From Mycobacteriales bacterium (GTDB lineage: Bacteria; Actinomycetota; Actinomycetes; Mycobacteriales; JACQDL01), in assembly GCA_035476575.1 (NCBI GenBank), contig DATILL010000065.1, positions 49,149 through 113,148 of the forward strand: a stretch of DNA of 64,000 nucleotides. The letters run 5' to 3'. The translations under genes and the position numbers were made by a program. Each line of letters starts with the position of its first letter. Positions within the stretch are counted from its first letter, which is position 1. Of the stretch, positions 2,013 to 21,120 are shown piece by piece. The notes beneath the pieces are model-generated. The model made no database searches and had not been told where the DNA came from. It was given only the letters and a program-made list of their open reading frames with translations.

Positions 2013-2750
2013 GTGTCTCTCGGTGGACGTACAGGGTATGGCTGCGGCAACGATCGAGTGCAGTCGGCTGTTCAGGATGAGCTGCTGAGCCTGCTGGCGA
2101 CCGCGGCGCGGGCCGCCGGGCTGGCCCGCGAGTCGTGGGTTCGGCAGGGCAGCGGGGACGGCGAGCTGGCGATAATTCCGCCCGGTGAGTCCGAGCCCGC
2201 CGTGGTGGACGGCTTTGTCGGTGAGCTGGCGGGGTTGCTGTATCGCCGTAACCGCGACAGGGCTCCGGCCGACCGCCTGCTGCTGCGGCTGGCCGTCGAC
2301 CATGGCCTGGCGGGGCCGACGTCCAACGGGTTCTCCGGCCGGCCTGTGCTCGCGGTCAGCCGCCTGGTCAACGCCGCCGTGGTCAAGCAGGCCTTGGTGG
2401 CCGCAGCGGACGCCAGCCTGGCGGTGATCGTGTCGCAGCAGGTCTACACCGACCTGATCATCAGCGGCCACACCAGCCTGGAGCCCAGCTTGTTCCGCCG
2501 GGTGCGGGTGCGGGAGAAGGAGCTCGACGAGCACGCGTGGCTGCGGGTGCCCGGCGTCGACGTACACCGGCTTGTCCTCACCCCCGATCCGGCGGCGCCG
2601 GACGGTGGCCCGCCAGACGCTGACCTCAGCCCGCGCGCCCCCGGCGCCGAGGAGGACCGCGGCCCCGCCCCCCGGGTGACCGCCGAGCACAGCAACGTCG
2701 CGATGGGCGACGGCAACGTCGTCGGCACCGGCAACGTCGTACGGCGGTGA
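2013..2750 (+). CDS. Cyclase-fold-like protein (possible class III nucleotidyl-cyclase homology domain) with a C-terminal G/N/V-rich motif; its 5' end is probably frameshifted
   Basis: The motif order YLCLSVDVQG(Y)G .. GDGELAI .. LRLAVDHG .. GFSG .. SRLVNAA .. LAVIVS matches the cyclase homology fold by eye only. The best start is ATG 1981 (RBS GGAGGGG). It encodes MTGTGSFARYLCLSVDVQG in another frame. That frame joins this ORF only if 1 nt is added in the GGG run at 2034-2036. The stop overlaps the next gene's start (GTGA at 2747-2750). Confidence 0.55.
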   Translation: MSLGGRTGYGCGNDRVQSAVQDELLSLLATAARAAGLARESWVRQGSGDGELAIIPPGESEPAVVDGFVGELAGLLYRRNRDRAPADRLLLRLAVDHGLAGPTSNGFSGRPVLAVSRLVNAAVVKQALVAAADASLAVIVSQQVYTDLIISGHTSLEPSLFRRVRVREKELDEHAWLRVPGVDVHRLVLTPDPAAPDGGPPDADLSPRAPGAEEDRGPAPRVTAEHSNVAMGDGNVVGTGNVVRR

Positions 2751-5700
2751 CCGGTCCGCGGGGGAGCGATCCCGGCCCGGCGTCCAGCCTGGTGATCAGC
2801 GGCAGCCAGGTCGCGGTGGGCGACCGCAACGTCGTGGGCGACGGCAACGTCGTCGTGGACAGGTTCGTCTTCGAGGGATGGGCACACGTCTCCGAGCCCA
2901 CGACCCGGGACGAGGCCGCCGGCATGCTGCTGTGCCCGCCGCCGCGGCCAGCGAGCGATGCGCTGCCGGGCGGGTGGTTACGGCCGGAGGCGGGGGTCAT
3001 CACGCCGTGGCGCCGCCCTGAGGCCGAGGATCTGGTCCAGTGGTGCGTGGGCAAGCCGACCGGGCTGCTGCGGCTGGTGCACGGGCTGGGCGGGCAGGGA
3101 AAGACGCAGCTTGCCGGGCAGGTCTGTGCCGAGCTGCGGCAACGCGGCTGGCTCGCCGGGTTCGTCGAGCTGCCCGCGCCAGGCGGCGGCGAGGTCCCGG
3201 CCGTCGGCCGCGGTGCGGGCCTGCCGATCTCAGCCTGGTCGCACCGGCAGTCAGAGATCATGACGGCGGTCCGGGCGCTGCCGAAGCTCGGCGTGTCCGC
3301 ACTGCTGGTGGTGGACTACGCCGAGAACCACGCCGCCGCGGTCGGCATGCTGCTGCGGGAGGCGGTACGGGCCGCGACCGCGCCGACCGCATCGACTCCA
3401 CCGCGGATCCTGCTGCTCAGCCGCGGTGAGGTGGACTGGCTGGACGACCATCCGTGCCGGGGCTGGGTCCATCCGGAGCCGATCCTGCTGGGACCGCTGC
3501 CGGGCTCGTTGTGGGAGGCGGGCGGGGAGTTCGCCGAGCTCGACGCGGCAGAGGTGGTCGCGCAGGTCTGGACCAAGGCGGTCACCCAGTTTGCTGCCCA
3601 TGTGGAGAGCGGCCCGCTCACGACCACGGCGGAGCCTGGGGCGCTTGCCGCGGCGGCACTGGCGACCGGCACGCCGACCAGCTTCCTGACCACGTTGGAC
3701 CTGTACGCCGACGCGCTGCTGCGTGTCCTTGACCGTGCGCAGCAGCTCGCCGGCCCCGCCGAGGCTGGCGCGTCCAGGCCCGGTGGCGACCCGATCAGCG
3801 GGATCCTGGCTCACGAACGGCGGGTCGTCGCGCAGGCGTTCGCGGCGGCTGGGGTGGACCTCGACGGGTACGAGCGTGACCGGGCGGTCTGCGTGGCCTT
3901 CCTGCGGCCGGCCGCTGACAGCACCTCTGCCGCGGATGCGCTGGCCACGTTGCCGGGGCTGCGCGCCTTGCCTGCCGGCCAGCGTGACCGGGTGGTCGGC
4001 GTGCTGGCCAGGTTGTTCCCGTCGGACGGCGGCGAGAACGTGTGGGAGGCGCCGAGGCCGGACCGGCTCACCGACACCCACCTGCTGCGCGTGGCCCAGG
4101 CAGCGCGGTCCGGCAAGGACTTCGACGACTACGTGGTGGCGGTCTGCGGCGGCGATGACCGGCAGCTCGCCGGCCACACGGCCCGGACCCTCCTCCGCGC
4201 CCTGTCCACGCCGGGGGCGGCCGTGTGGTACCCGGTTGGGCTGCGGCGGGTCGAGGGCTCGATCACCGCCCTGGCCCGCGCTCACCCCGGTGGGTACGTC
4301 CCGGCGCTGGTCGCGCTGGACCCCGTCCGGTTCGAAGACGAGATCCTGGACACGCTCGACGTACGGCGTACGGCGGCGGGGAGCCAGCCGCTGCCCATCG
4401 AGCCGGTGGAGGACATCGACTCCGAGCTGCGCCGGATCGGGGCCACGACCTCCCGGCTGCGGATCGCGGTCGCGGTGTCCCGGCGCCTGGTCGAGGCCAC
4501 CCGCCCGGCGGGCACCGCCGAGGACGACCCGGTGGAGGTCGCCCGGCACGCCGACCAACTGGTCGGGCTGAGCCGGCGGCTGGCCGAGGCGGGCTCGCTC
4601 GGTGAGGCGGTCGGCCCGGCGCGGGAGGCGGTCAAGTGGTACCGCCCGCTCTTCGACGGCGACCCCGAGACATACCGCCAGGCTCTGGCGGCGGCGGTGA
4701 CCAACCTGGGCAGCCGGCTGGCCGACGACGGCGCGCCGGCTGCCGCGCTGGCCGCGGCCGAGGAGGCCGTGACGTTGCGCCGGGAGCTGGCCGAGACCGG
4801 CAGCCACGAGCATCAGGTCGACCTGGCCTCGGCGCTGCACAACCTCGGCCTGCGGCTGTGGGACGCCGAGGAGGTCGACCGCGCCGTCGCCCCGGCCGGG
4901 GAGGCAGTCACGCTGCTGCGCGCGCTGGCCGCGGCCGACCCGGCTGAGCAAGCCCGGCTGGCAGTCGTACTGACCAGCCTGGCCCAGATCCACGCGGCCA
5001 CCGGGTCGCCAGTCCAGGCCGTGGCGGCGGCGCGGGAGGCTGTTGCGATCATGCGGCGGCTGGCCGAGGCCAACCCCGACGGCTACCTCCCCGGGCTGGC
5101 CGCGGCGCTGGTTGCCCTGTCCGCGCACCTGAGCCCGCCCGCCGGTCGACCGAGGATGTCCAGGCCCGTCCGGGAGGCGGTCCGGCTGGCCGCCGAAGCC
5201 GTCGAGACCTGCCGCCAGCTCGCCGTCGTCAACCCGCTTGCCTACGAGCCCGACCTCGCCGCCGCCCTGACCAACCTCGGCCTGCGATACGCCACCGCGG
5301 GGCAGGCCACGGAGGCGGTCACCGCCACCGAGCAGGCGGTCGACATCCGTCGGCGGCTGGCCGGGCACGACTCGAACCGCCACCGCGCCGACCTGGCCGC
5401 GTCGCTGAGCAACGTCGCCCTGCAGGTGGGCTCGACCCGGCGCCGCGCCGACGCGCTGGCGCCGGCACGCGAGGCGGTGGAGGTCTACGGGCAGCTCCAG
5501 GAGGAGCTTCCCTCGGCCCGCTCAGATCTCGCCGCGGCCCTGACCAACCTCGGCTACCTGTTGGCCGCCACGGGGCGAGACGATGAGGCGATCGCACCGA
5601 CCGCCCAGGCCGTCGCTACGTACCAGCAGCTCCTCGCCGACCAGCCCCAGCTTGTGCAGCGCATCTACCTCGCCGAGGCTCAGTACAACCTTGGCCTGCA

Positions 5701-8005
5701 CTACACCCATACTCGACACCCCCAGGACGCCGTCGAGGCGCTGACCGCCGCCGTCGACGGCTACCGCCAGATCGCCGAGACACACCCGCACGCCGTCCAT
5801 GCCGGCCTGCGCGCGGCCACCGCGGCACTCGACCACGCCCAGGCGCCCGGCACCGGCGCAACCGCCCACCCGGACCGCGCCCGAACGCAGGTCCGCTACG
5901 CCCGCCGCTGGCACGAAGAGGCCATCCGCTACCCGCTGCCCGGCATCATCATCGTTCTCGGCTGGCGGACCGACCTGGCCGCGCGCCAGCCCCGCCAGCG
6001 CACGGTCCGCGACGATCTCGTCGCGCTGGTCTTCGATCGCAAGCGTGCCGCCACAGCCGCCGAGGCCACCAGCACTGAAGAAGCCGCCACCGGCGTACCG
6101 GCCGCGCCGGCCAGCGCAGCCACCGGGGCGCTGTCCGGCATCGCCAACCGCGTCTCCCAGCTCACCGGAACCCTGACGGCCCGCGTCGCCAGCTCTCGCC
6201 TCCTGTCCCCACTGGTTGCCAACAGCAACATCACCCAGCTTGGCAAGGTCGTCGGCCTCGCCACCGCCCTCACCGCCCTGGTCGCCGGCGTCATCGTCGT
6301 GGCACCCGGCCACCATCCGGCGCCCGCGCCATCCACCGACGTGGCCCAGTCGACCCCAAATCCCACCTTCCCCCCCGGCCCGGGTCAGACCGGCGGGCCG
6401 CTCGTCCCCGGCTCTACGTCGAGCAACGGCTCCACGTCTGGGACCGGCTCTACGTCGAGCAACGGCCCTGGTGTTACGTCGAGCAATGGGGCCGGCTCCA
6501 GCCCCTCAAGCGGCTCTAGCGTTTCAAACCCCGATATTATTAATACACCCTGCGGGCAGAACCAGCACGCCGTTGCCGTTCCCCATGACCCTAGTCCGGC
6601 GACGATGTCCCTATCGAACCCGAACGTCGTGTCGCCCTCGAACCACGGCGTCTCGACGTGGGCAATGTCCCGCGTTGCTCGTATGGAAGCTGTCAGTTTG
6701 ACTGCCCCGACATTCGCCATCCGCATCGACGCCACGCGTCTAGTCTACCGACGCTTCTTCATCCCTGGGGTGACCTCCCACGTGTGGGTGGATTCCCGAT
6801 TGGTACAAACATTACAGCTTGCGCCCGGCTCATATCCGTTCCAGTTTGCTTCTGGCTACTTCGCCGACTTCAGGTTCACGGTGACCCAGGCTGGAAAGAT
6901 CGACTACGACTCCCGTTTCAATAGTTTCCTGTCCGGAACGGGTACCTCCACACTCACTATCTCGGGCTTCTTGGTGACCCTGGATGCCCGTCATCTGTCG
7001 GGCCTTGGCGTCCTGCTCGCTCACATGCCAGCCCAGGGCTGGATCACCTACACGCAGGTTCGCATGGTTCCCGCCTCGCACTACGATGTGCAGAGCCCAG
7101 GTGGCATCGCGAGCTTTTCATTCAAGCTGGGACTCGACGGGCGGTTCTCGTACGGCTCTTCTCTGGACGTGAGAAGCGGTGGAGTCCTTAAAGGAAACGG
7201 GACCTCCTCGTTGGAAATCGTCGGTTATCCTATCCGTATCGACGCCTCACGCCTATCTTATCGGTACTTCCTTATCCCTAACATAACGCTCAAATTCATA
7301 GACGCTCAGACGATACCCACCCTGCAGGTCCTGCCAGGCTCATACGCGTTTCAGTTTGCTTCCGGCTACTTCGCCGACTTCAGGTTCACGGTGACCCAGG
7401 CCGGACTGATTGACTACGACTCCCGCTTCGCGGGTTTCCTCAGTGCGTATAGGTCCACACTTACTGTCACCGGCTTATCGGTGACCCTGGACGCTCGGCG
7501 CCTGTCGGGCCTTGGCATTCTGCTCGCTCACATGCCAGCCCAGGGCTGGATCACCTACGAGCAGGTTCGCATGCTCCCCGCCTCGCACTACTCTGTCCAG
7601 CAAGGCTCGGGCGAGGTCACGAGCTTTATCTTCAAGTTGGGGCTTGATGGAAGGTTCTCGTACGACTCTTCTCTGGACGCCAACAGCGGCGGGTTCCTCA
7701 AAGGAAACGGAACCTCCACCCTAGAATTTCTCGGCTACCCGCTATGTGTTGACGCACGGTCCGCCGGAGGAGCAGGGGTCACCGTCGAGCCAATCCGGGG
7801 AATGCCGTTCAGTACCACGCACGTCCAGCTTGCCTACCTGCTCCCTGCGCCGTACTTCAGACTCAGGTTCAATCCTGGCCATGCTCCGTTCTCCCTCGCA
7901 CCGAATGGCACCTTCAGCTTCGATAGCGCTCTGTCACCCTACTTGCGTCTGGAGAAGCGCGGCGGCATAACTGTGCTCACGGTTCTCGCGCCACCCCCTG
8001 CTTGA
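2747..8005 (+). CDS. NLR-like STAND NTPase (P-loop NOD) with TPR array, one TM helix, Ser/Gly/Thr linker and C-terminal tandem beta-rich repeats (1752 aa)
   Basis: The N-terminal motif SQVAVGDRNVVGDGNVV spans 2804-2854. Walker A is GLGGQGKTQLAG (about 3085-3110) and Walker B-like is LLVVDYAEN. About ten TPR_10/12-like units carry a recurring AAALTNLG..L...GR..EA pattern (about 4500-5800). A hydrophobic helix LGKVVGLATALTALVAGVIVVAP lies at about 6240-6305. An S/G/T-rich linker spans 6400-6530, and five roughly 85-aa repeat units run from 6712 to 8005. Confidence 0.85.
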   Translation: MTGPRGSDPGPASSLVISGSQVAVGDRNVVGDGNVVVDRFVFEGWAHVSEPTTRDEAAGMLLCPPPRPASDALPGGWLRPEAGVITPWRRPEAEDLVQWCVGKPTGLLRLVHGLGGQGKTQLAGQVCAELRQRGWLAGFVELPAPGGGEVPAVGRGAGLPISAWSHRQSEIMTAVRALPKLGVSALLVVDYAENHAAAVGMLLREAVRAATAPTASTPPRILLLSRGEVDWLDDHPCRGWVHPEPILLGPLPGSLWEAGGEFAELDAAEVVAQVWTKAVTQFAAHVESGPLTTTAEPGALAAAALATGTPTSFLTTLDLYADALLRVLDRAQQLAGPAEAGASRPGGDPISGILAHERRVVAQAFAAAGVDLDGYERDRAVCVAFLRPAADSTSAADALATLPGLRALPAGQRDRVVGVLARLFPSDGGENVWEAPRPDRLTDTHLLRVAQAARSGKDFDDYVVAVCGGDDRQLAGHTARTLLRALSTPGAAVWYPVGLRRVEGSITALARAHPGGYVPALVALDPVRFEDEILDTLDVRRTAAGSQPLPIEPVEDIDSELRRIGATTSRLRIAVAVSRRLVEATRPAGTAEDDPVEVARHADQLVGLSRRLAEAGSLGEAVGPAREAVKWYRPLFDGDPETYRQALAAAVTNLGSRLADDGAPAAALAAAEEAVTLRRELAETGSHEHQVDLASALHNLGLRLWDAEEVDRAVAPAGEAVTLLRALAAADPAEQARLAVVLTSLAQIHAATGSPVQAVAAAREAVAIMRRLAEANPDGYLPGLAAALVALSAHLSPPAGRPRMSRPVREAVRLAAEAVETCRQLAVVNPLAYEPDLAAALTNLGLRYATAGQATEAVTATEQAVDIRRRLAGHDSNRHRADLAASLSNVALQVGSTRRRADALAPAREAVEVYGQLQEELPSARSDLAAALTNLGYLLAATGRDDEAIAPTAQAVATYQQLLADQPQLVQRIYLAEAQYNLGLHYTHTRHPQDAVEALTAAVDGYRQIAETHPHAVHAGLRAATAALDHAQAPGTGATAHPDRARTQVRYARRWHEEAIRYPLPGIIIVLGWRTDLAARQPRQRTVRDDLVALVFDRKRAATAAEATSTEEAATGVPAAPASAATGALSGIANRVSQLTGTLTARVASSRLLSPLVANSNITQLGKVVGLATALTALVAGVIVVAPGHHPAPAPSTDVAQSTPNPTFPPGPGQTGGPLVPGSTSSNGSTSGTGSTSSNGPGVTSSNGAGSSPSSGSSVSNPDIINTPCGQNQHAVAVPHDPSPATMSLSNPNVVSPSNHGVSTWAMSRVARMEAVSLTAPTFAIRIDATRLVYRRFFIPGVTSHVWVDSRLVQTLQLAPGSYPFQFASGYFADFRFTVTQAGKIDYDSRFNSFLSGTGTSTLTISGFLVTLDARHLSGLGVLLAHMPAQGWITYTQVRMVPASHYDVQSPGGIASFSFKLGLDGRFSYGSSLDVRSGGVLKGNGTSSLEIVGYPIRIDASRLSYRYFLIPNITLKFIDAQTIPTLQVLPGSYAFQFASGYFADFRFTVTQAGLIDYDSRFAGFLSAYRSTLTVTGLSVTLDARRLSGLGILLAHMPAQGWITYEQVRMLPASHYSVQQGSGEVTSFIFKLGLDGRFSYDSSLDANSGGFLKGNGTSTLEFLGYPLCVDARSAGGAGVTVEPIRGMPFSTTHVQLAYLLPAPYFRLRFNPGHAPFSLAPNGTFSFDSALSPYLRLEKRGGITVLTVLAPPPA
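6712..7745 (+). repeat. Intragenic tandem duplication (about 510 bp / 170 aa, two copies, each made of two roughly 85-aa sub-units; a fifth divergent unit follows to 8005)
   Basis: The string cagtttgcttc(t/c)ggctacttcgccgacttcaggttcacggtgacccagg occurs at 6842 and at 7352, an offset of 510. The protein blocks FAIRIDATRL..TLTISG/FLVTLDARHLSG..SLEIVG repeat as YPIRIDASRL..TLTVTG/LSVTLDARRLSG..TLEFLG. The region is visibly AT-richer than its surroundings. Confidence 0.9.
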
Positions 8006-8339
8006 CCCAGGCCGGTCCAACTCTCAGCCCCGATTCTGCGGTAGCGTCAAAGTTAGTATTCGCATTATTAGATAATCTCGCGGCGAGGTTAGCTCTATGT
8101 GGCAAGTCAGATCCCGCTGGTGGCGAGTTCGGGTGTTCCGGGTGCGCGGTATCTGTGGGGGAGTGATGGTCAAGGCACGGTGGCAGGCACCCCGCGGATC
8201 AACAGCCGGATCCGCAGACCCGCAGTTCGAGCAGTAGGAAGCTGCCGGTTCATTCATTGGAGCTGGCTGCGACGTGGTAACTTCGTCGGCGGTCCCTCTA
8301 AACCGGCCAGGAGCTGTGCGCCAGACCCCACTATGTGGT

Positions 8340-9452
8340 CTACGCGGCGGGTAGCTGCCAAATGTGGTCAGTGTCGAGCCGGACGAGCTGCTGGTCGTGG
8401 CGGATAGTGAGCAGGTAGGCGTCGTAGCTGGGTTTGCCGAGGTGCTCCCATTCGGAGTGGGCGGCCTCGACCTCGTCCCAGAGCCGGCGTGGGCCGTTCT
8501 GGGTGACGGTGCCGGCGGGGGTGATATGGGCGCGCGAACCGTCAGGGTGGCTGAGGTACAGGTCGGCCAGGTCGTTTCCGCCGTTGGCGTAGCTCAGGCT
8601 GGGCAGCGCGATCGAGAGGTGGAAGCGAAACGGTCCGTCGTACACGGCGGTGCTGGGCAGGTTCGCCTGACGGGATGGGCCGGCGGGCTCGGCCGGCGAG
8701 TGAGGGGCCGGCCCGGGCCGAGTGGCCGCCGTCCCGCGCAGTGGCATGAAGTATGCCCCGGACAGGAACCGGCCGGCGGCGCGGTCACCGTCGACCTCCA
8801 GCAGGGCCAGGCCGCTGGCGATGGGCGCGAGTATCTTCCCGCCGGGCCGAGTCTGCGCGAGCCATGCGGGCGGGACGCGGGTCAGGCCGCAGGTGGCGAG
8901 GATCCGGTCGTACGGCGCGCGAGCTGGGTAGCCGTTGGCGCCGTTGCCGCTGCCAATGAGCGGGTGGTAGCCAGCCGCTGCTAGCCGCTTTCGCGCAGCG
9001 GTGCAGAGGCCGGGGTCGATGTCGATGCTGGTGACGAGGTGGTCGCCGAGGCGATGGCAGAGCAGCGCGGCGGTGTAGCCGGTACCGGTGCCGACCTGCA
9101 GCACCCGGTGCCCGTCGGCTACGTCCAGGTCGTGCAGCATCGCGGCGACCAGGGATGGCATGGTGCCGGAGGAGGTGACGCTGGCGGGGGTGATCTGGGT
9201 GATCAGCGTGCTGTCGCGGTAGACCGCGGCCAGCCACTCCTGCCGATCCTCCACTCGCGTGCTGTCGACCAGACGATAGCCGGGCTGAGCGTAGAATCGC
9301 GGGACAAGCAGGTGCCGTGGTACCGCGGTGAAGGCCGCCTGCCACGCGGGGTCGGGCAGCGACCCATCAGCGACGAGCTCGGTGACCAGCGCCTTCCTCA
9401 GTTCTGCCGCCAGCTCTGTCGCGTCACGCGGTTGTGCGGCTGGACCGTTCAC
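8340..9452 (-). CDS. RiPP-associated O-methyltransferase, protein-L-isoaspartate O-methyltransferase (PIMT) homologue with a C-terminal extension
   Basis: A PIMT-like N-terminal half (AFTAVPRHLLVPRFY) and a SAM-binding GxGxG motif (VLQVGTGTGYTAALL) are present. The preferred start, GTG 9452, overlaps the ATP-grasp stop (GTGA). The tracked ORF begins further upstream, at 9524. Confidence 0.8.
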   Translation of the reverse strand: MNGPAAQPRDATELAAELRKALVTELVADGSLPDPAWQAAFTAVPRHLLVPRFYAQPGYRLVDSTRVEDRQEWLAAVYRDSTLITQITPASVTSSGTMPSLVAAMLHDLDVADGHRVLQVGTGTGYTAALLCHRLGDHLVTSIDIDPGLCTAARKRLAAAGYHPLIGSGNGANGYPARAPYDRILATCGLTRVPPAWLAQTRPGGKILAPIASGLALLEVDGDRAAGRFLSGAYFMPLRGTAATRPGPAPHSPAEPAGPSRQANLPSTAVYDGPFRFHLSIALPSLSYANGGNDLADLYLSHPDGSRAHITPAGTVTQNGPRRLWDEVEAAHSEWEHLGKPSYDAYLLTIRHDQQLVRLDTDHIWQLPAA

Positions 9453-10444
9453 GGCTGTTCCATGAGCAGGTCGGCGATCGACGCGGAGATCGGTATGCCA
9501 GTCCGGTATTCCAACCAGGCCCACTGCCCGGCCGGGTTCACGTCCACCAGCAGATGCCGGCCGGTGCCTTTCTCGACCACAAAGTCCAGTGTGGCGAAGT
9601 GCAGCCCGAGGTGCTTGAGCAGCCGTGCGACGCCGAGCGACTCCGGCTCGGGCAGCTCGCCGATGCGGTAGTCCAGGTCGGCGTAGTGAGCTCGCCAGTC
9701 CAACAGGTCCCGACCGGTGGCCGAGCGGATCTCAACCGCGAACATCTGCCGACCGACGACGGTCACCCGCAGGTCATGGTCTTTGTCGATGAGCTGCTGG
9801 AAGCAATGCCCGGTAGCTCGTATTCCGGGATCTTCCCAGCGCCCGGTAGGGACCTCGGTGACGTACACGACTCTGCTCGGCCGCCCGTGCTTGTCACGGA
9901 GACCGCGTCCGTCCAACGGCTTGTACACGATCCGGCCGCCCACCTCCGCGGCAAACGGCGGCACATCCTCGGGCCGGTTGGTGATCAAAGTGGGCGGCAC
10001 GACCAGACCGCAAGCGCGAGCGGCCGCCAGGTTGACCGGCTTGGACTCAGCCCCTTCCACCGCGGCAGGGTCGTTGACCAGGCGAACAGGTAACGACCGC
10101 AGGACTCCCCACAGCGCGTGACGACCCTGCCGCGCGCACCATTGTCGCTGCTCGGCGGGCAGCGCCTCGGCCGGCCGGACGTCACCGGCTCGGCGCCAGT
10201 ACACCGATCGGAGTCGGGTCAGGTCGACCTCCCGGAGGCCCCACATCGACCCAGACCAACCCTCACCCTTCTCGGCGGCGCCCAAGGTGGCGGTCAGGGA
10301 CAGCCCTGCTGGGAAGTGCGCGCCGTCGATGCGTGCGAAGCTCACCCCCCGCTCCAACAGATGCCGGATGACGTGGTCTGCGGTCGGGTCGACATCGGCG
10401 GTGACAACCAGGACGCGAGGGCTGTCGGGCATGGGTGACGTCAC
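9449..10444 (-). CDS. ATP-grasp ribosomal peptide maturase (graspetide omega-ester/amide ligase)
   Basis: 331-aa ORF with ATP-grasp-type motifs (IVYKPL, FQQLIDKDHDLRVTVVG, LDFVVEKGTGRHLLVDVNPAGQW). It lies between a small precursor ORF and the methyltransferase. The start could be GTG 10444 or ATG 10432. Confidence 0.8.
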   Translation of the reverse strand: MTSPMPDSPRVLVVTADVDPTADHVIRHLLERGVSFARIDGAHFPAGLSLTATLGAAEKGEGWSGSMWGLREVDLTRLRSVYWRRAGDVRPAEALPAEQRQWCARQGRHALWGVLRSLPVRLVNDPAAVEGAESKPVNLAAARACGLVVPPTLITNRPEDVPPFAAEVGGRIVYKPLDGRGLRDKHGRPSRVVYVTEVPTGRWEDPGIRATGHCFQQLIDKDHDLRVTVVGRQMFAVEIRSATGRDLLDWRAHYADLDYRIGELPEPESLGVARLLKHLGLHFATLDFVVEKGTGRHLLVDVNPAGQWAWLEYRTGIPISASIADLLMEQP

Positions 10445-10450
10445 GTTGCC

Positions 10451-10699
10451 TTAGTCGTGCGCGGGGTCGGTGTCGACGGCGAGTGGGTCCTTGCCGTCGG
10501 GGTTGGTTTGCGCGGTGCAGGTCGCCACCATCGGCGCGACCTCGTGTAGCGGCCGACCATCCGGCAACACCGCGATCTGCTGGTCCGGGCAGAGGAAGGC
10601 GGCGGACAACACGGACCCATCAGGGTCGGCTGGGACCGGCAGCGCGAACACCAACCCCAACGGCGGACAAGGCTGCACATCGACGGTTATCGGATCCAT
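10451..10699 (-). CDS. Graspetide precursor peptide (82 aa); predicted core ..ATCTAQTNPDGKDPLAVDTDPAHD
   Basis: ATG 10699 is preceded by GGAGAGGAG. The Thr- and Asp-rich C-terminus surrounds an Asp-Gly dipeptide. The gene sits 6 nt upstream of the ATP-grasp gene. The 268-aa tracked ORF (to 11257) is treated as an upstream read-through artefact. Confidence 0.7.
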   Translation of the reverse strand: MDPITVDVQPCPPLGLVFALPVPADPDGSVLSAAFLCPDQQIAVLPDGRPLHEVAPMVATCTAQTNPDGKDPLAVDTDPAHD

Positions 10700-10949
10700 G
10701 GAGTCTCCTCTCCTGCGGCCAGATCTTATCCGGACGAGGCATGGTTTCTCACCACCTGGTCGGCACGGAAGTGGCTCGCCGTCCTCACGCGGCCGTTTAG
10801 CTACGACGAGCAACCGGCCGATAGGGCAGTTTCTTGAAGACCGAGACCGATATTGTCCGCGGTGCCGTGCGTCAGCCCGTGTTCGATGAAGGGTATGGGT
10901 GCAGAGCCGATCGAGATAGTTGGTCTGCTGGTGTCCGGTCTGTCTGCCG

Positions 10950-11253
10950 CGGGCGTGCGCCGGGGGCGGGTCGCGGCGTGGCAGACTCCACCTCATGTTG
11001 CGCTGGATAACCGCGGGGGAGTCGCACGGCCCCGCGCTGGTCGCCGTACTCGAGGGGCTGCCGGCCGCGGTGCCCGGATGAGCTTCGAGCGGGACGAGGT
11101 CGAGCTGACCGGCGGGGTCCGGCACGGGGTCACGATGGGCGGCCCGGTCGCGATCCGGGTCATGGCCGTCGACCCGGTCGACCCGGACGAGCTCGCCAGC
11201 CTGGCCCGCAACGCCCCCCTGACCCGGCCCCGCCCCGGCCACGCCGACCTGGA
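10950..11253 (+). pseudogene. aroC: Decayed duplicate of the aroC 5' end plus about 40 nt of upstream leader
   Basis: The nucleotide sequence is near-identical to 12072-12470, apart from two internal deletions. Read from ATG 10995 it gives [28 protein letters not shown] and then a stop. Confidence 0.85.
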
Positions 11254-11454
11254 ACATGTGGGCGCGGGCCTATCCGCCCCGGCCGGCAGGAGATCCCGTG
11301 CCTGGTCCGGGACGGCGACGTCGTCCCGGACTGCACCACCTCGTTTCCGCAGGTCAACGGGGGGTGGGACGGTGGGACAGTTCTTGTAGGTCGGCGCTGT
11401 CCCACCTCCGCTACGGACATGCGACACTGGCCAGGGACAAGGAACGGAGGTGCG

Positions 11455-11640
11455 ATGACGACCAGCAACCCCGATCACACCGCGCTGCCTGAGCCGCTCA
11501 CCGTCGAGGAGCTGTTCCGGCACGTCCAGCCCATCCGGTCGGCCGACGACCTCGCCTGCGAGGGCATCTTCGAGACCGACGCCGAGCTGGACGAGTTCCT
11601 TGCGCACGTGGTGACAGCGCGACACTCCGATCTTGCATGA
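11455..11640 (+). CDS. Putative type II antitoxin (VapB-like, 61 aa)
   Basis: ATG 11455 follows a GGAACGGAGG RBS. The protein is small and acidic. Its stop overlaps the PIN-toxin start (ATGA at 11637-11640). Confidence 0.55.
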   Translation: MTTSNPDHTALPEPLTVEELFRHVQPIRSADDLACEGIFETDAELDEFLAHVVTARHSDLA

Positions 11641-12028
11641 AGCGCATCGTCCTCGACACCGACGTTGCCTCTCTCAGTCTCAAGCATCGGCTGCCGCCGA
11701 CCACAGCGGCCCGCCTCGTGGGCTGGCAGCCAAGCGTTACCTTGGGCGAGCTGACACAATGGGCGGAGCTACGCCAGTGGGGACAACGAAACCGCGGGCT
11801 TCTCGACAGTGGCTTTCCGGGGTAGCCGTGCTCCCCTGCACCAGCGAGGTGGCACGGACCTGGGGACGGATTTCCGCCTCGGCAGTACGGCGCGGCCGGC
11901 CACGTCCACAGAACGACACGTGGATCGCAGCCTGCTGCCTCACCTACGGCTTCCCGTTGGCAACGCTGAACCTGAAGGACTTCGCCGACTTTGCCGAACA
12001 CGAAGGTCTGAGGTTGCTCGGCAGTTGA
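11637..12028 (+). pseudogene. vapC: PIN-domain toxin VapC, frameshifted
   Basis: The N-terminus MKRIVLDTDVAS (PIN Asp) is in frame 11637-11825. The rest (WLSGVAVLPCTSEVARTWGRI..NDTWIAACCLTYGFPLATLNLKDFADF) is in the frame of ORF 11633-12028. The frame changes near 11800-11815. Confidence 0.7.
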
Positions 12029-12115: not shown

Positions 12116-15349
<3,234 letters not shown>

Positions 15350-16039
15350 CCCACCCGCACGGCTCAGCCGCCACCGGCAGTCCGGGGCGGCACGGGGTGA
15401 GAAACCCTGGCCGCCTATCTCTCCTACCGCAACTCGATGAAGGTTGGTCCGCGTCGACGCGGGCGCGGCGGCGTAGGGACGCAGCCGAGACGGCTGTACG
15501 GCGTAGCCTCGACGGGCCAAAAGACTAGGCTTCTACGAACCGAGGACACAGCTTCTGCCAAGATTTCCCAATGCGCACCGCGACGGCCGCAGATCGTGCT
15601 TGCCGCGCGGCTTCCGCACCGGCGGTGACGCCAGCCTCCGTCTCGCAGCCCATGCCTGGGCGCCGACCGCTAGAGCCGGTAGGCCTGCACCTGCACCCGT
15701 GCCCTTGGCGATTACAGCCGTCGCCACGCTCGTCTCCAGGCACGGCGAGCTGACCCGTGTCGGTCACGCCGGTCTGGTGGGTCTTGCCCATGTCGGTCCC
15801 CTTCCTCCTGGTCTTCCTGACCTTCTTGGCGGATCACCCGATAACCGCCATACGGCAGGTTGCCGGTGGGGAACCGCTGCCTCATTTCCGAAAGTCCGGA
15901 CAACCTCCATGGCGTGCCCGCCACGGGGGCATCGCCACCTGGCGCCTGGTGGCTCCTTTCTTGGCGGCAGCGGAGAGAACTAAATTTCAGAAAACGTGGT
16001 TCTCAACGACAACCGACCGCCACCCTAGGGGGAGACGGC

Positions 16040-16774
16040 ATGGCGGCGCGACAGGAGATAAGACTTGAACTACTGGGTGTCTTTCGGCTTCGGTACGCAC
16101 AGACCGCCGTTGTCCTGCGCCCAAGCTCGCGCCGTCTTATCGCGCTGCTGGCCGTTACCGGAACTCAGGCACGGTTGGACGCCGCCGCGCGGCTGTGGCC
16201 GGACCTGCTGCAGGCCCGAGCCGCGTCCAACTTGCGCACGGCGGCCTGGCGGATCCGGCAGGACGCGTGTGGGCTCCTGGTCAGCGAGGGCGACGTGCTG
16301 CGGCTTGAGGAGCTGAGCTGCGACCTCACGGAGGTACGGGACTGGGCGCGCCGCACGGTGGCCGGTGAGCAGCTTAGCCACCTCCCTGAGCACGCGGCGG
16401 CGGAGCTGCTGCCCCGGTGGAGCGACGAGTGGCTTATCGAGCCCCGCGAAGAGCTCCGGCTCCTGCAGCTGCACGCGCTTGAAGCATTAGCGCAGCGACT
16501 CCTCATGGCTGGTCGGCTCGCTGAGGCATGCACTCACGCGCTGACCGCCGTGATGATGGACCCACTACGCGAAAGCGCTACCCGGCTGCTTATCGAGATT
16601 CATTTGCGCGAGGGCAACACTCTGGACGCCGTCCGGAGGTTCCACCGCTTTGAGGAGCTGCTCGACCAAGAGCTCGACGTTGCGCCCAGCCCCGCGATCA
16701 CCTCTCTGGTGGCTCCCCTTATTACGTCGAAGCGTGCGGCGGGGGTTGACCCGCGAAGGCTCCGCCGGACCTGA
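16040..16774 (+). CDS. SARP-family regulator (OmpR-type winged helix plus bacterial transcriptional activation domain)
   Basis: The protein starts at ATG 16040 (MAARQEIRLELLGVFRL..). A BTAD-like helical region is present (LLIEIHLREGNTLDAVRRFHRFEELLDQELDVAPSP). It lies immediately upstream of the lanthipeptide genes. Confidence 0.75.
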   Translation: MAARQEIRLELLGVFRLRYAQTAVVLRPSSRRLIALLAVTGTQARLDAAARLWPDLLQARAASNLRTAAWRIRQDACGLLVSEGDVLRLEELSCDLTEVRDWARRTVAGEQLSHLPEHAAAELLPRWSDEWLIEPREELRLLQLHALEALAQRLLMAGRLAEACTHALTAVMMDPLRESATRLLIEIHLREGNTLDAVRRFHRFEELLDQELDVAPSPAITSLVAPLITSKRAAGVDPRRLRRT

Positions 16775-17372: not shown

Positions 17373-17539
17373 GGACGAGAAGAGGCACCTGAGCCGGGCG
17401 GGGCGTCGCGGCCCACGCCATGCCCTGCGCATGCCGTGTGCGGCGCTCCCCTGGCTTGGTCCTTGCGCGCAGCCGGCGAGGAGTGCGGCCCAGTGCGGAA
17501 TGCGGCCAGTGCGGAATGCGGCCCAGTGAGGAGTGGACG

Positions 17540-18700
17540 GTGACGGACAAGCTGCTGACCGAAGCTCACGGAACCCTGACCGAGACTGAGGTCATCCCAT
17601 ACCTGCGCGAACGCGGTCTCGTCGACGGCGCCAGCGTCGTCGACGGCGACATCCGCGTTCTCGACGTGTCGCGACGGAACCGGAACTTCCGCGTGCTCCG
17701 CTCCGCGGGACCGTCGTTCCTGCTCAAGCAGGGCGTCGCGCGGGACAGCTTCAGCGCTGTTGCCCGGGAGGCACGTGCTTATGAGCTGTTCGGCCCGTTG
17801 CCCCACAGCGTCGGGGCGGGATCGTCGCCAGCGTTTCGGCACGCGCCAACCGCGTACGCATACGACGACGAGCGCGACGTGCTGGTCCTGGAGCTCGTGA
17901 CCGGCGTGGAGAACCTGCGCGTCCGGCACCGGCGCGCGCGCCGCCCGCCGCGAGACGCCGCTCGTGCCGTCGGGCGGGCGCTTGCCGCGCTGCACCAGCT
18001 TGTGCCGGCGACGGTCGACCTGGCCACGGCGCAGCGGCTGCTGGGGGCCGGCGAGCCTGGTGTCTTGTCGGTGCAGCGTCCGGGGCTGAGCATGCTGCGC
18101 GACTTCAGCAGCGCGTGCGTTGACCTGGTGCGGATGGTCCAGGCGGCGCCCGACGTCCCCGAGCTGCTCGCCGGCCTGCGGCAGGACTGGCGCACTGACA
18201 CGCTGATTCACCATGACGTCCGCTGGGACAACTTCCTGCTGCCCCTTCCGCGCGCGCGAAATGGCGCACGCGGCCGGCGTGAGGTCATGCTCGTCGACTG
18301 GGAGACCGCCGCCCTGGGCGACCCCTGCTGGGATGTCGGCGCGGTGTTTGGTGAATATCTCGGCGACTGGCTCAGCTCCGTCCCGGGTGTGGCAGGAGAG
18401 CCGCCAGAGCGGTTCCTGCATTTGGCGCGCTGCCCGCTGGAGTCGGTGCAGCCAGCCGTCCGGTCGTTCTGGTCGGCCTATGTCGGGCAGGCCGGCCTGG
18501 CAGCGGGACAGGCCAGCGAGCATCTTCTCCGGTCAGTCCGGTACTCCGGGCTCAAGCTGGTTCAGTCTGGCCTGGAGCAGGTGCAACGGTCCGCCCGGTG
18601 GACCGTCTGCACCGTGTCCTTCCTGCAGGTCGGGGTCAACATCCTGACCAGGCCGGAGGAGGCTGGCGCTGTGCTGCTCGGGTTGGGAGGCGTGGCGTGA
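17540..18700 (+). CDS. Aminoglycoside-phosphotransferase-like kinase (LanK-type dehydration kinase candidate)
   Basis: GTG 17540 follows a GAGGAG RBS. The catalytic loop is HHDVRWDNFLL and the metal-binding segment is LVDWETAALGDPCWDVG. Its stop overlaps the next gene's start. Confidence 0.75.
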   Translation: MTDKLLTEAHGTLTETEVIPYLRERGLVDGASVVDGDIRVLDVSRRNRNFRVLRSAGPSFLLKQGVARDSFSAVAREARAYELFGPLPHSVGAGSSPAFRHAPTAYAYDDERDVLVLELVTGVENLRVRHRRARRPPRDAARAVGRALAALHQLVPATVDLATAQRLLGAGEPGVLSVQRPGLSMLRDFSSACVDLVRMVQAAPDVPELLAGLRQDWRTDTLIHHDVRWDNFLLPLPRARNGARGRREVMLVDWETAALGDPCWDVGAVFGEYLGDWLSSVPGVAGEPPERFLHLARCPLESVQPAVRSFWSAYVGQAGLAAGQASEHLLRSVRYSGLKLVQSGLEQVQRSARWTVCTVSFLQVGVNILTRPEEAGAVLLGLGGVA

Positions 18701-21120
18701 CCAGCCATGTCGACCGCCTCGACGAGGCGGTGCGCGCGGTGCGGATCGTGTCGTCGACGTCCTTCACCTGGTTCGGCGTCCGGTCGCCCGCCCCACCGGC
18801 CCGGCTCCGGTCCATGTTTACCCCCGAGGTCGCTCGCGCCCACCTGCGCCTCGGCCTCCGTGACCGGCTTTACCAGGACTTTTACTGCGCGGGCACGGCA
18901 CGGCCCTCCCCGTCGCAAGACTGGCACGCCGGCCGGCCCAGTGACCGGATGGCCCTCGCGATGTCCCGCGCCAACGGCGGCCGCGGCACGTGGGAACCGG
19001 GCTGGGTGGTCCGCACCGTCGAAGAGGGGCTGTTCGCGGTGCGCCGCAACGGCCTGGAGCTGTGGGTACGGCCGCAGGACTGCCGCACCGACGCTGGGAC
19101 GCCGGCTTCCGGGCACGAGGTAGCGGTCCGCCTCCCCAAGGAGTCGTTCGAGCTGGCGCCCGGCTACTACTGCGCCCTCAGCGACGCGCCCTTTCCGTGG
19201 GATGGCGACGGCGTCCTGGTCCGGGTGTACCTCAACCTGCGACCCGACCAGGCGGTGCGTGGCGTCGGGGCGCTCACCGGCCGGCTCAACGCCGCTGACG
19301 TGCCGTACCGGTTGAAGGTGCTCAACGACGAGCAGAGCTACGCCCGGTGTGACACCGCGGTGCTCTACCTGCGGCAGCAGGATGTTGCCGTCGCCGTTGA
19401 GCCCCTTGCCCACGCCGTCAACGACCTCCGCGCGGCGTTGCGGCCGGCAGTGCCGGCGATGACCAAGGCGCTGGTGCCGGGGGTGGGGCTGGCCGAGGAC
19501 CCGGGATCCGCCGGTGACAGCTTCGGGCAGCACCGCTGCGCGCTGGTCGCCGACGGGTTGCTGCAGGCGCACGAGGTGGGCAGCAGGTCTCCGCGGGCCC
19601 AGTTGGAGGCAGTCCTGGACGTCTTCCGCGCCGCGGGCGTCGATCCGGAACGGCCTTACCTGAACCCCGGCTCGCTCGACCGCTACGCGCTTCCCGCCCA
19701 GCCCCGCCTCGCCATCCCTGGGTGGAGGCCGGTCCGCGCCGACGGTGCCGGGAGCCCCGACCTCCGGGTGGCCCCCTTGAGCGCTGTCGCGCTCATCGAC
19801 GTCGCGCGCCGGATCGGCTGCCGGCTGACCGCCGACGCCGTCTGGCACGAGGACCGCTGCACCTGGCTCGGGCCTGTTCCAGCGCTGGACGAGCATGGCG
19901 GGCCGGCGCTGGCGCACGGCACCATTGGCAGCGGGCTGTATGACGGCACCAGCGGCGTCGCTGTTTTCCTCGCCGCGCTCGCCGCCACGACGGGCGACCA
20001 GGATGCGGCCCGGACCGCGTCGGCCGCGGTCCGGCAGGCGCTGGGCGCCGCCGGGCACGGCCGCGACGCCCCTGGCCTGTACAACGGCACGGTGGGCGTG
20101 TGCCTCGCCGCCGCGGTCGTGGCCAGGCTCACCAGCGACGGCGCCCTGGCCACGGCTGCCCGAAAGCTCGTAGACGAAGCGCTGTCGCGCCAGCAGGAGG
20201 CGTTCGGGTTCGACGTCCTGTCCGGCTTGGCCGGTGCGGTCGCGGGCGTGCTGACGCTCTCGGCGCTGCTTGCGGACAGCAGCCTGGTCGAGGACGCGGT
20301 CCGGCTCGGAGAGGCGCTGGTCGGCGCCGCCGTTCGCGCTGACGAGGGCTGGTCGTGGCGGCCCGGGACCGGGTTGCGCCATCCCGATCTGACCGGCCTG
20401 TCGCACGGTGCCGCTGGCGCGGGCTACGCGTTGCTGGAGCTCTTCCGGGTCACTGGCGACAGCCGGTGGGCGTCGGCGGGCCGGGAGGCTTTCCGGTACG
20501 AGCGGGCCTGGTTCTCGCCGGACGCGGGCAACTGGCCGGACTTTCGCGACGAGAAGGGGCGGCCGTCGCGGCGGCGCCCCTTGGCGTTCCGCACCCAGTG
20601 GTGCCACGGCGCACCAGGGATCGCCCTCACCCGGCTCAGGGCCGCCGAGCTCCTGGGCGACACAGCGCTGGGCGAGGAGGCGGTCGTGGCGCTGTCAACC
20701 ACCATCGAGAACACTCGGGCGGCCCTGCTCGATGGGACTTTGGGCTTCAGCCTGTGCCACGGGCTGGCCGGCAACGCGGACGTGCTGCTCGACGGCCTGC
20801 CGCTGGCGGAGGAGCGGGACCTTCCCGCCCGGGCGTTGGTGGCGGAGATTGCCGCGGCCGGACATGCCCGGCACGCCGTCGGCGAGCAGCCGTGGCCCTG
20901 CGGGCTGTCTACGCACGGAGGCGAGAGCCCCGGCCTCATGCTTGGGCTCGCGGGTATCGGCTACCACTACCTCCGCCTCGCCTGTCCCGACGTCGTCCCG
21001 TCCGTGCTGCTGCTGCGGCCGGAGCGCACGGCCGAAGGCATCGCCGCGCTCGCGGGCGAGCGGGCCAGCCGCGCTGCCACCACCAGCCGCGCTGCCACCA
21101 CCAGCCTTGCGGGCACGTAA
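18697..21120 (+). CDS. Fusion protein: about 400-aa N-terminal domain (candidate HopA1-like phospho-Ser/Thr lyase) plus a C-terminal LanC-like cyclase
   Basis: The GTG start overlaps the kinase stop (GTGA). The C-terminal half has the LanC signatures GLSHGAAGAGYALLELF, TQWCHGAPGIALTRL and FSLCHGLAGNADVLL, so the Zn ligands are present. The N-terminal assignment is inferred from three-component (class V) systems and was not recognised directly. Confidence 0.7.
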   Translation: MTSHVDRLDEAVRAVRIVSSTSFTWFGVRSPAPPARLRSMFTPEVARAHLRLGLRDRLYQDFYCAGTARPSPSQDWHAGRPSDRMALAMSRANGGRGTWEPGWVVRTVEEGLFAVRRNGLELWVRPQDCRTDAGTPASGHEVAVRLPKESFELAPGYYCALSDAPFPWDGDGVLVRVYLNLRPDQAVRGVGALTGRLNAADVPYRLKVLNDEQSYARCDTAVLYLRQQDVAVAVEPLAHAVNDLRAALRPAVPAMTKALVPGVGLAEDPGSAGDSFGQHRCALVADGLLQAHEVGSRSPRAQLEAVLDVFRAAGVDPERPYLNPGSLDRYALPAQPRLAIPGWRPVRADGAGSPDLRVAPLSAVALIDVARRIGCRLTADAVWHEDRCTWLGPVPALDEHGGPALAHGTIGSGLYDGTSGVAVFLAALAATTGDQDAARTASAAVRQALGAAGHGRDAPGLYNGTVGVCLAAAVVARLTSDGALATAARKLVDEALSRQQEAFGFDVLSGLAGAVAGVLTLSALLADSSLVEDAVRLGEALVGAAVRADEGWSWRPGTGLRHPDLTGLSHGAAGAGYALLELFRVTGDSRWASAGREAFRYERAWFSPDAGNWPDFRDEKGRPSRRRPLAFRTQWCHGAPGIALTRLRAAELLGDTALGEEAVVALSTTIENTRAALLDGTLGFSLCHGLAGNADVLLDGLPLAEERDLPARALVAEIAAAGHARHAVGEQPWPCGLSTHGGESPGLMLGLAGIGYHYLRLACPDVVPSVLLLRPERTAEGIAALAGERASRAATTSRAATTSLAGT

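Follow-up and report, generated by a model that had tools for sequence, protein, structure and literature searches.

A predicted graspimiditide operon on a Mycobacteriales contig, encoding a precursor core with fuscimiditide-like loop geometry

The open reading frame (ORF) at positions 10451–10699 of the 64,000-nucleotide stretch of Mycobacteriales DNA analysed here (the window) very probably codes for a graspimiditide precursor (A), graspimiditides being the aspartimidylated graspetides of group 13, and is very probably co-transcribed with an ATP-grasp ligase (B) and a methyltransferase (M). This assignment follows from the three-gene operon in which the ORF lies, a match above cutoff to the precursor family TIGR04186, the recurrence of the arrangement at homologous loci, the conservation of the core peptide and the correspondence of this core with that of fuscimiditide. 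Ester formation, the aspartimide and the ring connectivity of the window peptide are predicted from sequence comparison with characterised relatives. The gene set and the logic of the cluster are already known and nothing about them is new. No characterised member of the core family was found in the searchable literature, and a full-text search for the motif DGKDP returned no relevant paper. The operon and the features that delimit it are as follows.

8340–9452, minus strand: gene of a PIMT-like O-methyltransferase, 370 aa, whose GTG start overlaps the stop codon of the ATP-grasp gene (GTGA)
9449–10444, minus strand: gene of an ATP-grasp peptide ligase, starting with GTG at 10444 (331 aa) or, in GenBank, with ATG at 10432 (327 aa)
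10451–10699, minus strand: gene of the precursor peptide, 82 aa, with the leader at about residues 1–58 and the core at about residues 59–82
10705–10713, minus strand: ribosome-binding site, read off the sequence as GGAGAGGAG and separated from the ATG by 5 nt
8346–10768, minus strand: block held in common with a metagenome contig (L003) at 89–90% nucleotide identity (blastn), with unrelated flanks

Translation of the minus strand across 10451–10699 yields the 82-residue peptide MDPITVDVQPCPPLGLVFALPVPADPDGSVLSAAFLCPDQQIAVLPDGRPLHEVAPMVATCTAQTNPDGKDPLAVDTDPAHD, with the stop codon lying within these coordinates. Both the ORF and its last 24 residues are exactly those quoted by an earlier, sequence-only reading of this DNA, and the strong ribosome-binding site it described is likewise found, GGAGAGGAG at 10705–10713 preceding the ATG by 5 nt. 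GC content at codon positions 1/2/3 of the 82 codons is 0.72/0.47/0.83, which is coding-like, the adjacent operon genes having values of 0.73/0.49/0.81 (ATP-grasp) and 0.73/0.54/0.85 (methyltransferase). Against the NCBIfam model TIGR04186 (GRASP_targ) the peptide scores 26.8 bits, passing the curated cutoff of 25, with residues 13–81 aligned. In addition, the pattern of the core, defined as Asp-Gly at positions 10–11, at least three Ser/Thr in positions 1–7 and at least four Asp/Glu in positions 12–24, was matched by this core and by no other of the 96,515 stop-free 24-mers in the six frames of the whole window; this, along with its retention in more than 100 homologues, indicates that the pattern did not arise by chance.

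The precursor ORF is contained, in frame, within an ORF of 268 aa (10451–11257, ATG at 11257) that is present in the mechanical ORF list, so that the small ORF might be read as the C-terminus of a larger protein, with some other small ORF nearby as the true substrate an associated possibility. Either of these is extremely improbable. The extension upstream of the 82 codons, up to 11257, has a codon-position GC of 0.76/0.61/0.73, characteristic of non-coding sequence, its translation is Arg/Pro/Gly-rich and junk-like, and it overlaps, on the complementary strand, a decayed duplicate of the 5' part of aroC. Nucleotide similarity to L003, the closest relative, stops at 10768, homologues begin at the equivalent Met/Val and are 73–98 aa in length, and the strong ribosome-binding site lies ahead of the ATG at 10699. 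The 268-aa ORF was rejected as the true gene on the basis of its codon-position GC, the end of conservation at 10768 and the antisense aroC fragment. As for a different substrate, which the earlier reading had itself raised as a way in which it could fail, six further small ORFs within or next to the operon (8024–8257, minus; 8099–8407, plus; 10441–10680, minus; 10620–10742, minus; 10435–10800, plus; 10470–10889, plus) have neither a coding-like signature nor a match to the family HMM. The earlier reading was right that the precursor is nested in a spurious 268-aa call, but its expectation that automated annotation could miss the gene was not borne out, since GenBank HSV65863.1, from a Mycobacteriales bacterium metagenome-assembled genome (MAG), is the exact 82-aa peptide, named "putative ATP-grasp-modified RiPP", and the JGI gene call also gives the exact product, named as an ATP-grasp-modified RiPP.

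The three genes, in the order precursor, ATP-grasp ligase and PIMT-like O-methyltransferase, abut or overlap on the minus strand. The ligase carries the MvdD pre-ATP-grasp domain (PF21068), retains all residues that are invariant in the ATP-grasp alignment and has as its PDB relatives the graspetide ligases 5ig8, 9bou, 5ig9, 7m4s and 7mgv (E 3e-33 to 5ig8). Its best NCBIfam match, over the full length, is TIGR04187 ("ATP-grasp ribosomal peptide maturase"), with 313.9 bits against a cutoff of 350. The methyltransferase matches PF01135 (PCMT, protein-L-isoaspartate O-methyltransferase) at 1e-28, contains the SAM-binding motif VLQVGTGTG and aligns to positions 1–361 of the 363 in TIGR04188 ("ATP-grasp peptide maturase system methyltransferase"), with 350.7 bits against a cutoff of 380. 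As neither enzyme reaches the curated NCBIfam cutoff of its SAV_5884-type model (maturase, TIGR04187; methyltransferase, TIGR04188), the two are, by sequence, divergent relatives rather than members by threshold. This also explains their labels in GenBank, where the ligase is a "hypothetical protein" (HSV65862.1) and the methyltransferase a "methyltransferase domain-containing protein" (HSV65861.1). The operon contains no protease or exporter gene, and we know of no leader protease for graspimiditides as a class. A scan for terminators found two terminator-like sites, both within the precursor gene on the plus strand, a number no higher than shuffled sequences predict.

[quoted passage not shown] 2023, bioRxiv 10.1101/2023.06.21.545981; Zhu and Link 2026, PMC13001092). 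The window holds this set as the precursor at 10451–10699, a PF21068/TIGR04187-type ATP-grasp protein and a PF01135/TIGR04188-type methyltransferase, and the precursor belongs to the ATP-grasp-target RiPP family TIGR04186 at the score given above. Its core has the corresponding layout, with S/T4 and T7 in the N-terminal part, D10-G11 in the loop and D18, D/E20 and D24 in the C-terminal part, while the (R)PFG motif of the leader is represented by P13-L-G-L16. All four characterised graspimiditides are nested stem-loops with a methylated Asp in the loop, and in the characterised systems the methyltransferase acts solely on the cyclised peptide (PMC13001092).

The same three-gene order is found around ATP-grasp homologues with 65%, 51%, 45% and 47% identity to the window ligase and around a truncated one with 91%, these five traced contigs each having an ORF of 74–92 aa directly upstream of the ATP-grasp gene and a PCMT-type methyltransferase gene directly downstream. 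More widely, a methyltransferase gene follows immediately in 82 of the 87 ATP-grasp-homologue loci fetched, and a precursor-like ORF lies upstream in 80 of the 86 that yielded ORFs. The search of genome contigs with the ATP-grasp alignment returned 80 loci, Thermobifida fusca not being among them. At the loci that lack a methyltransferase (n=5) the Asp-Gly status is mixed, and many methyltransferase-bearing loci have an Asp-Xaa other than Asp-Gly, in agreement with published reports. Profile searches with the precursor alignments gave about 105 precursor clusters at 90% identity, mostly from Pseudonocardiaceae or Mycobacteriales metagenome bins with one from the cultured Pseudonocardia acaciae, and many family members already carry the name "putative ATP-grasp-modified RiPP". 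One 24.7-kb contig (L001, ENA ERZ25039533 contig_78313) holds, besides the homologue of the window operon, two further and separate ATP-grasp RiPP clusters. The first of these consists of precursor, ATP-grasp and PCMT genes on the opposite strand, its core ending in HKPTVPDGNPANPPPLDEGEKD. In the second, a precursor of the Actino_peptide type (PF14408) is paired with an ATP-grasp gene of its own, and no methyltransferase was called within the fetched locus.

Conservation of the core was profiled from 101 cluster representatives anchored on Asp-Gly, with the last 24 residues of the window peptide numbered 1–24. The features of the precursor that this profile and the family alignments bring out are listed below, the boundary between leader and core being placed at about residue 58/59.

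10652–10663, minus strand: leader motif P13-L-G-L16, equivalent to the (R)PFG(L) motif for leader recognition, from the family alignments
10454–10525, minus strand: 24-residue core ATCTAQTNPDGKDPLAVDTDPAHD, residues 59–82, from the 101-homologue conservation profile and the ungapped alignment with fuscimiditide
10505–10516, minus strand: predicted ester donors T62 (core 4) and T65 (core 7), conserved as Ser/Thr and Thr, respectively, in 101/101
10493–10498, minus strand: Asp68-Gly69 (core D10-G11), predicted site of methylation and aspartimide formation, matching Asu10-Gly11 of fuscimiditide and invariant in MAFFT alignments
10454–10474, minus strand: candidate ester acceptors D76 (core D18), D78 (core D20) and D82 (core D24, C-terminal), from conservation and, for D18, as in fuscimiditide

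The consensus of the 101 related precursors is S/T4-x-x-T7-x-x-D10-G11-K-D13-P-I-x-V-D18-[ST]-[DE]20-P-x-x-D24, and that of the family, with at least 100 sequence clusters, can be written S-x-P-T-E-x-D-G-K-D-P-I-x-V-D-[ST]-D-P-x-Y-D. Both donor positions are fully conserved (position 4 Ser/Thr and position 7 Thr, each 101/101), as are Asp at position 18, Ser/Thr at 19 and Asp/Glu at 20. Position 21 is Pro and position 24 Asp in 100 sequences each, and the precursors usually end at position 24. Within the loop Lys12 is present in 97 sequences, Pro14 in 95, Ile15 in 96 and Val17 in 100 of the 101. D10, G11 and D13 are fixed by the anchor in this count, and their invariance (D68, G69 and D71 of the precursor) was judged from independent MAFFT alignments. 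The T-N-P-D-G variant of the window represents a minor branch (5/101). In the leader P13 and L16 are invariant and G15 is nearly so, the family consensus being PFGL with Leu in place of Phe in the window. RPFG is reported to be the key sequence by which ThfB recognises the ThfA leader (PMC13003496).

A conserved C-terminal pattern of hydroxyl and acidic residues, on which the sequence-only reading had staked its claim, is thus present around the Asp-Gly in the homologous clusters, and its interpretation as a stem-loop with an aspartimide at Asp-Gly gains support from this conservation and from the ungapped alignment with fuscimiditide. Its T-x-T donor motif did not survive. Core position 2 (T60) is V, A, T, M and others across the family, with V in L001, A in P0124 and L in L004 among the closest relatives, and the conserved donors are instead [ST]62-x-x-T65. 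As for the proposed D-x-D, the D76/D78 pair is conserved but the C-terminal D82 is conserved too, such that the esterified acids are not fixed by sequence.

Fuscimiditide (ThfA/ThfB/ThfM of Thermobifida fusca; PDB 7LI2/7LIF), with the core AGTMRVTYPDGQKPGQSDVEKD, provides the closest comparison. Its esters T3-D22 and T7-D18 and its aspartimide at D10-G11 have been established by NMR (PMC12291112). The entries 7LI2/7LIF and 8VYC were retrieved by searching with fuscimiditide residues taken from the papers, a direct PDB search with the 24-residue window core giving no match. Both systems have a three-gene A-B-M operon, a core at the extreme C-terminus and a P-[FL]-G motif in the leader, and the cores align without gaps, being identical at A1, T7, P9, D10, G11, P14 and D18. 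Both consequently have the same 10-residue loop between T7 and D18, with Asp-Gly at loop positions 3–4 (core 10–11), and the family profile agrees with this spacing of donor, acceptor and Asp-Gly. The shared T7, P9, D10, G11, P14 and D18, together with the equal loop length, allow the inner ring and the aspartimide site to be transferred from fuscimiditide to the window peptide. The outer ring, on the other hand, is not transferable, since the fuscimiditide pair T3/D22 aligns with Cys3/Ala22 of the window core. Where fuscimiditide has three residues on each side of a symmetric stem (T3-MRV-T7/D18-VEK-D22) in a 22-residue core, the 24-residue window core offers as conserved alternatives S/T4 with D20 or D24, and any stem closed by S/T4 with D24 or D/E20 is necessarily asymmetric. 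A further difference is the loop sequence G-K-D-P-[IL]-x-V, which is strongly conserved within the window family.

From these comparisons the following route to the mature peptide may be proposed. Ligase B would bind the leader at its P-[FL]-G-L motif, with a conserved beta-hairpin at precursor residues ~35–44 probably adding to recognition, and would phosphorylate the side chains of C-terminal core Asp residues, which N-terminal Ser/Thr hydroxyls would capture to give two omega-esters and hence a stem-loop. The inner ester, assigned by homology with fuscimiditide as T65-D76 (core T7-D18), would enclose the 10-residue loop N-P-D-G-K-D-P-L-A-V. Methyltransferase M would then methylate Asp68 in the closed loop, and the backbone nitrogen of Gly69 would displace methanol to give an aspartimide that could persist or open to isoAsp/Asp, the leader being cut off by a protease. 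Proline has no backbone N-H with which to close a succinimide. Among the acids of the core, D13 and D20 precede Pro, D24 is C-terminal and D18 is the likely ester acceptor, which designates D10 as the predicted methylation site.

For the outer ester T62 (core 4)-D82 (core D24) is the favoured pairing, to which we give about an even chance, with T62-D78 (core D20) appreciably less likely. D24 is preferred for three reasons. It is near-invariantly Asp, whereas position 20 tolerates Glu, and Asp-to-Glu substitutions were not accepted by ThfB (PMC12291112). In more distant relatives, from Kribbella and Streptomyces sp. R302, D18 is retained along with acids at 22–24, but position 20 is Cys in one of the sequences. 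Finally, ThfB is able to make an asymmetric stem (PMC12291112). An AlphaFold2 model of the precursor, built from a 35-sequence alignment, is confident solely for leader residues ~31–50, which include the hairpin at 35–44. Its core is of low confidence (block-mean pLDDT 50–62) with no hairpin or strand pairing, so the model is silent on ring topology.

Five conserved acidic positions (D10, D13, D18, D/E20 and D24) face just two N-terminal hydroxyl positions, which leaves the choice of acceptors under-determined and raises the possibility that the same class of peptide, made by the same enzymes, has a ring topology other than the fuscimiditide-like nested stem-loop. In one example the Asp-Gly would be enclosed by a small ring from T65 to D71 (core T7-D13), with T62-D76 as the second link. 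In another there would be three links, drawing on T60, on the conserved S/T77 or on the C-terminal alpha-carboxylate. The Ser/Thr at core position 19 (S/T77) is 100% conserved without an assigned role, most members end exactly at D24, and SsfA has been postulated to contain an ester between a side chain and the C-terminus (PMC10787088; PMC13001092), all of which speak for such alternatives, as does the extra Thr (T60) of the window peptide. T60, however, is not conserved even in the closest relatives, the characterised graspimiditides are all nested stem-loops, and the T7 to D18 spacing with P9, D10, G11 and P14 is the same as in fuscimiditide, where T7-D18 is established by NMR. We therefore regard a different topology as unlikely, and the fuscimiditide-like nested stem-loop remains the preferred reading.

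Less likely again is that the family forms a graspimiditide topology not yet described. This may take the form of an asymmetric stem ring, with 2 versus 5 residues, closed on the C-terminal Asp or its alpha-carboxylate, or of a third link through the invariant S/T19. In the branch to which the window belongs it may be a natural thioester from Cys61, which occupies the site of the outer donor Thr3 of fuscimiditide. The two cysteines of the precursor, C37 (codon 10589–10591, minus strand) and C61 (codon 10517–10519, minus strand), are shared with the three closest relatives alone, and a disulfide or natural thioester through C37/C61 is possible in this branch. PDB 8VYC contains a 22-residue chain that equals fuscimiditide at 4–22 and has Cys at position 3 (engineered T3C), and an engineered thioester-linked ThfA is on record in the literature.

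The stem-loop predicted here, with a methylated Asp-Gly in the loop, is also found, along with the same enzyme pair, in amycolimiditide and albusimiditide/SsfA (graspimiditide Clusters 5 and 1, from Amycolatopsis and Streptomyces), the ATP-grasp enzymes of this type encoded at the genome loci being 36–46% identical to that of the window. These peptides have much larger cores with four or five esters in T-x-T-x-T/D-x-D-x-D ladders, unlike the window family with its two conserved N-terminal hydroxyl positions. Cross-link spacing is equal in fuscimiditide and amycolimiditide (Choi et al. 2023, bioRxiv 10.1101/2023.06.21.545981), a rule that the window family breaks with 2 residues between the donors and 1 or 5 between the candidate acceptors. 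More distant are the microviridin-type graspetides (MdnA with MdnB/MdnC; 5ig8, 5ig9), which share the homologous ATP-grasp fold, the MvdD pre-ATP-grasp domain and leader-directed macrocyclisation through side chains, but have two ligases, a PFFARFL helical leader and a cage-like tricycle with an amide bond, and have neither methyltransferase nor aspartimide.

The closest relative of the operon, L003 (JGI 3300054999 contig Ga0498936_0000003, relevant stretch ~4001–4870), carries a precursor gene 89% identical to that of the window. Residues 41–82 of the two differ by one conservative replacement (L73I), with seven synonymous changes in sense codons, in contrast to nine replacements in the leader, a difference that indicates purifying selection concentrated on the core. 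The ATP-grasp gene of L003 lacks 165 nt found in the window (9467–9631), the ligase call being split into pieces of 223 and 50 aa, and the L003 operon may be a decaying copy. If the window operon were itself a decaying or silent remnant, no mature peptide would be made in the source organism. Such a remnant state would fit with the fragmented ligase of this closest relative, with the pseudogenised aroC fragment adjoining the operon, which suggests past rearrangement, and with a sigma-70 consensus scan that gave no promoter-like site. This consensus is ill-suited to high-GC actinobacteria, however, and the three window genes are intact, full length and of coding-like composition, the ATP-grasp enzyme keeping every alignment-invariant residue, the methyltransferase its SAM motif and the core being under purifying selection. 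A remnant is, on balance, very unlikely, and a functional graspimiditide operon is preferred.

The degraded aroC duplicate lies at 10995–11252 (plus strand), with the graspimiditide operon on one side and a PIN-domain ORF (11633–12028) on the other. It corresponds to the first ~118 codons of chorismate synthase aroC (12116–13294, plus strand) at 82–87% nucleotide identity, has a deletion and changes frame, which suggests that the 5' end of the aroC-aroB-aroQ operon once underwent an insertion or rearrangement. At the opposite end of the graspimiditide operon, a 1752-aa ORF with TPR repeats (2747–8005, plus strand) converges on the end of the methyltransferase gene, with GC falling to ~0.55–0.60 in its 3' part against ~0.70 in the surroundings. 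Further along the window are a BTAD regulator (15860–16774) and an APH-type kinase (17420–18700, plus strand), followed by an 840-aa HopA1 and LanC-like cyclase protein (18598–21120, plus strand). The kinase and HopA1/LanC-like set at 17420–21120 resembles kinase/lyase/cyclase lanthipeptide systems, and may represent a second RiPP cluster in the window.

To our knowledge no biological activity has been reported for any graspimiditide. The annotation lesson is the opposite of the earlier expectation, as the tiny precursor is correctly named and it is the divergent ligase that is left unnamed, so that enzyme-first mining by annotation keywords would skip this cluster on account of its "hypothetical protein" ligase. 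The window peptide adds to the graspimiditides a core family without a characterised member, which may be one of the eight clusters, or one of the small clusters, of Choi et al. 2023. It combines the loop geometry of fuscimiditide with a different, asymmetric stem and an unusually conserved loop sequence, and the family thereby bears on the reach of the equal-spacing rule and on what the PIMT-like methyltransferase recognises.
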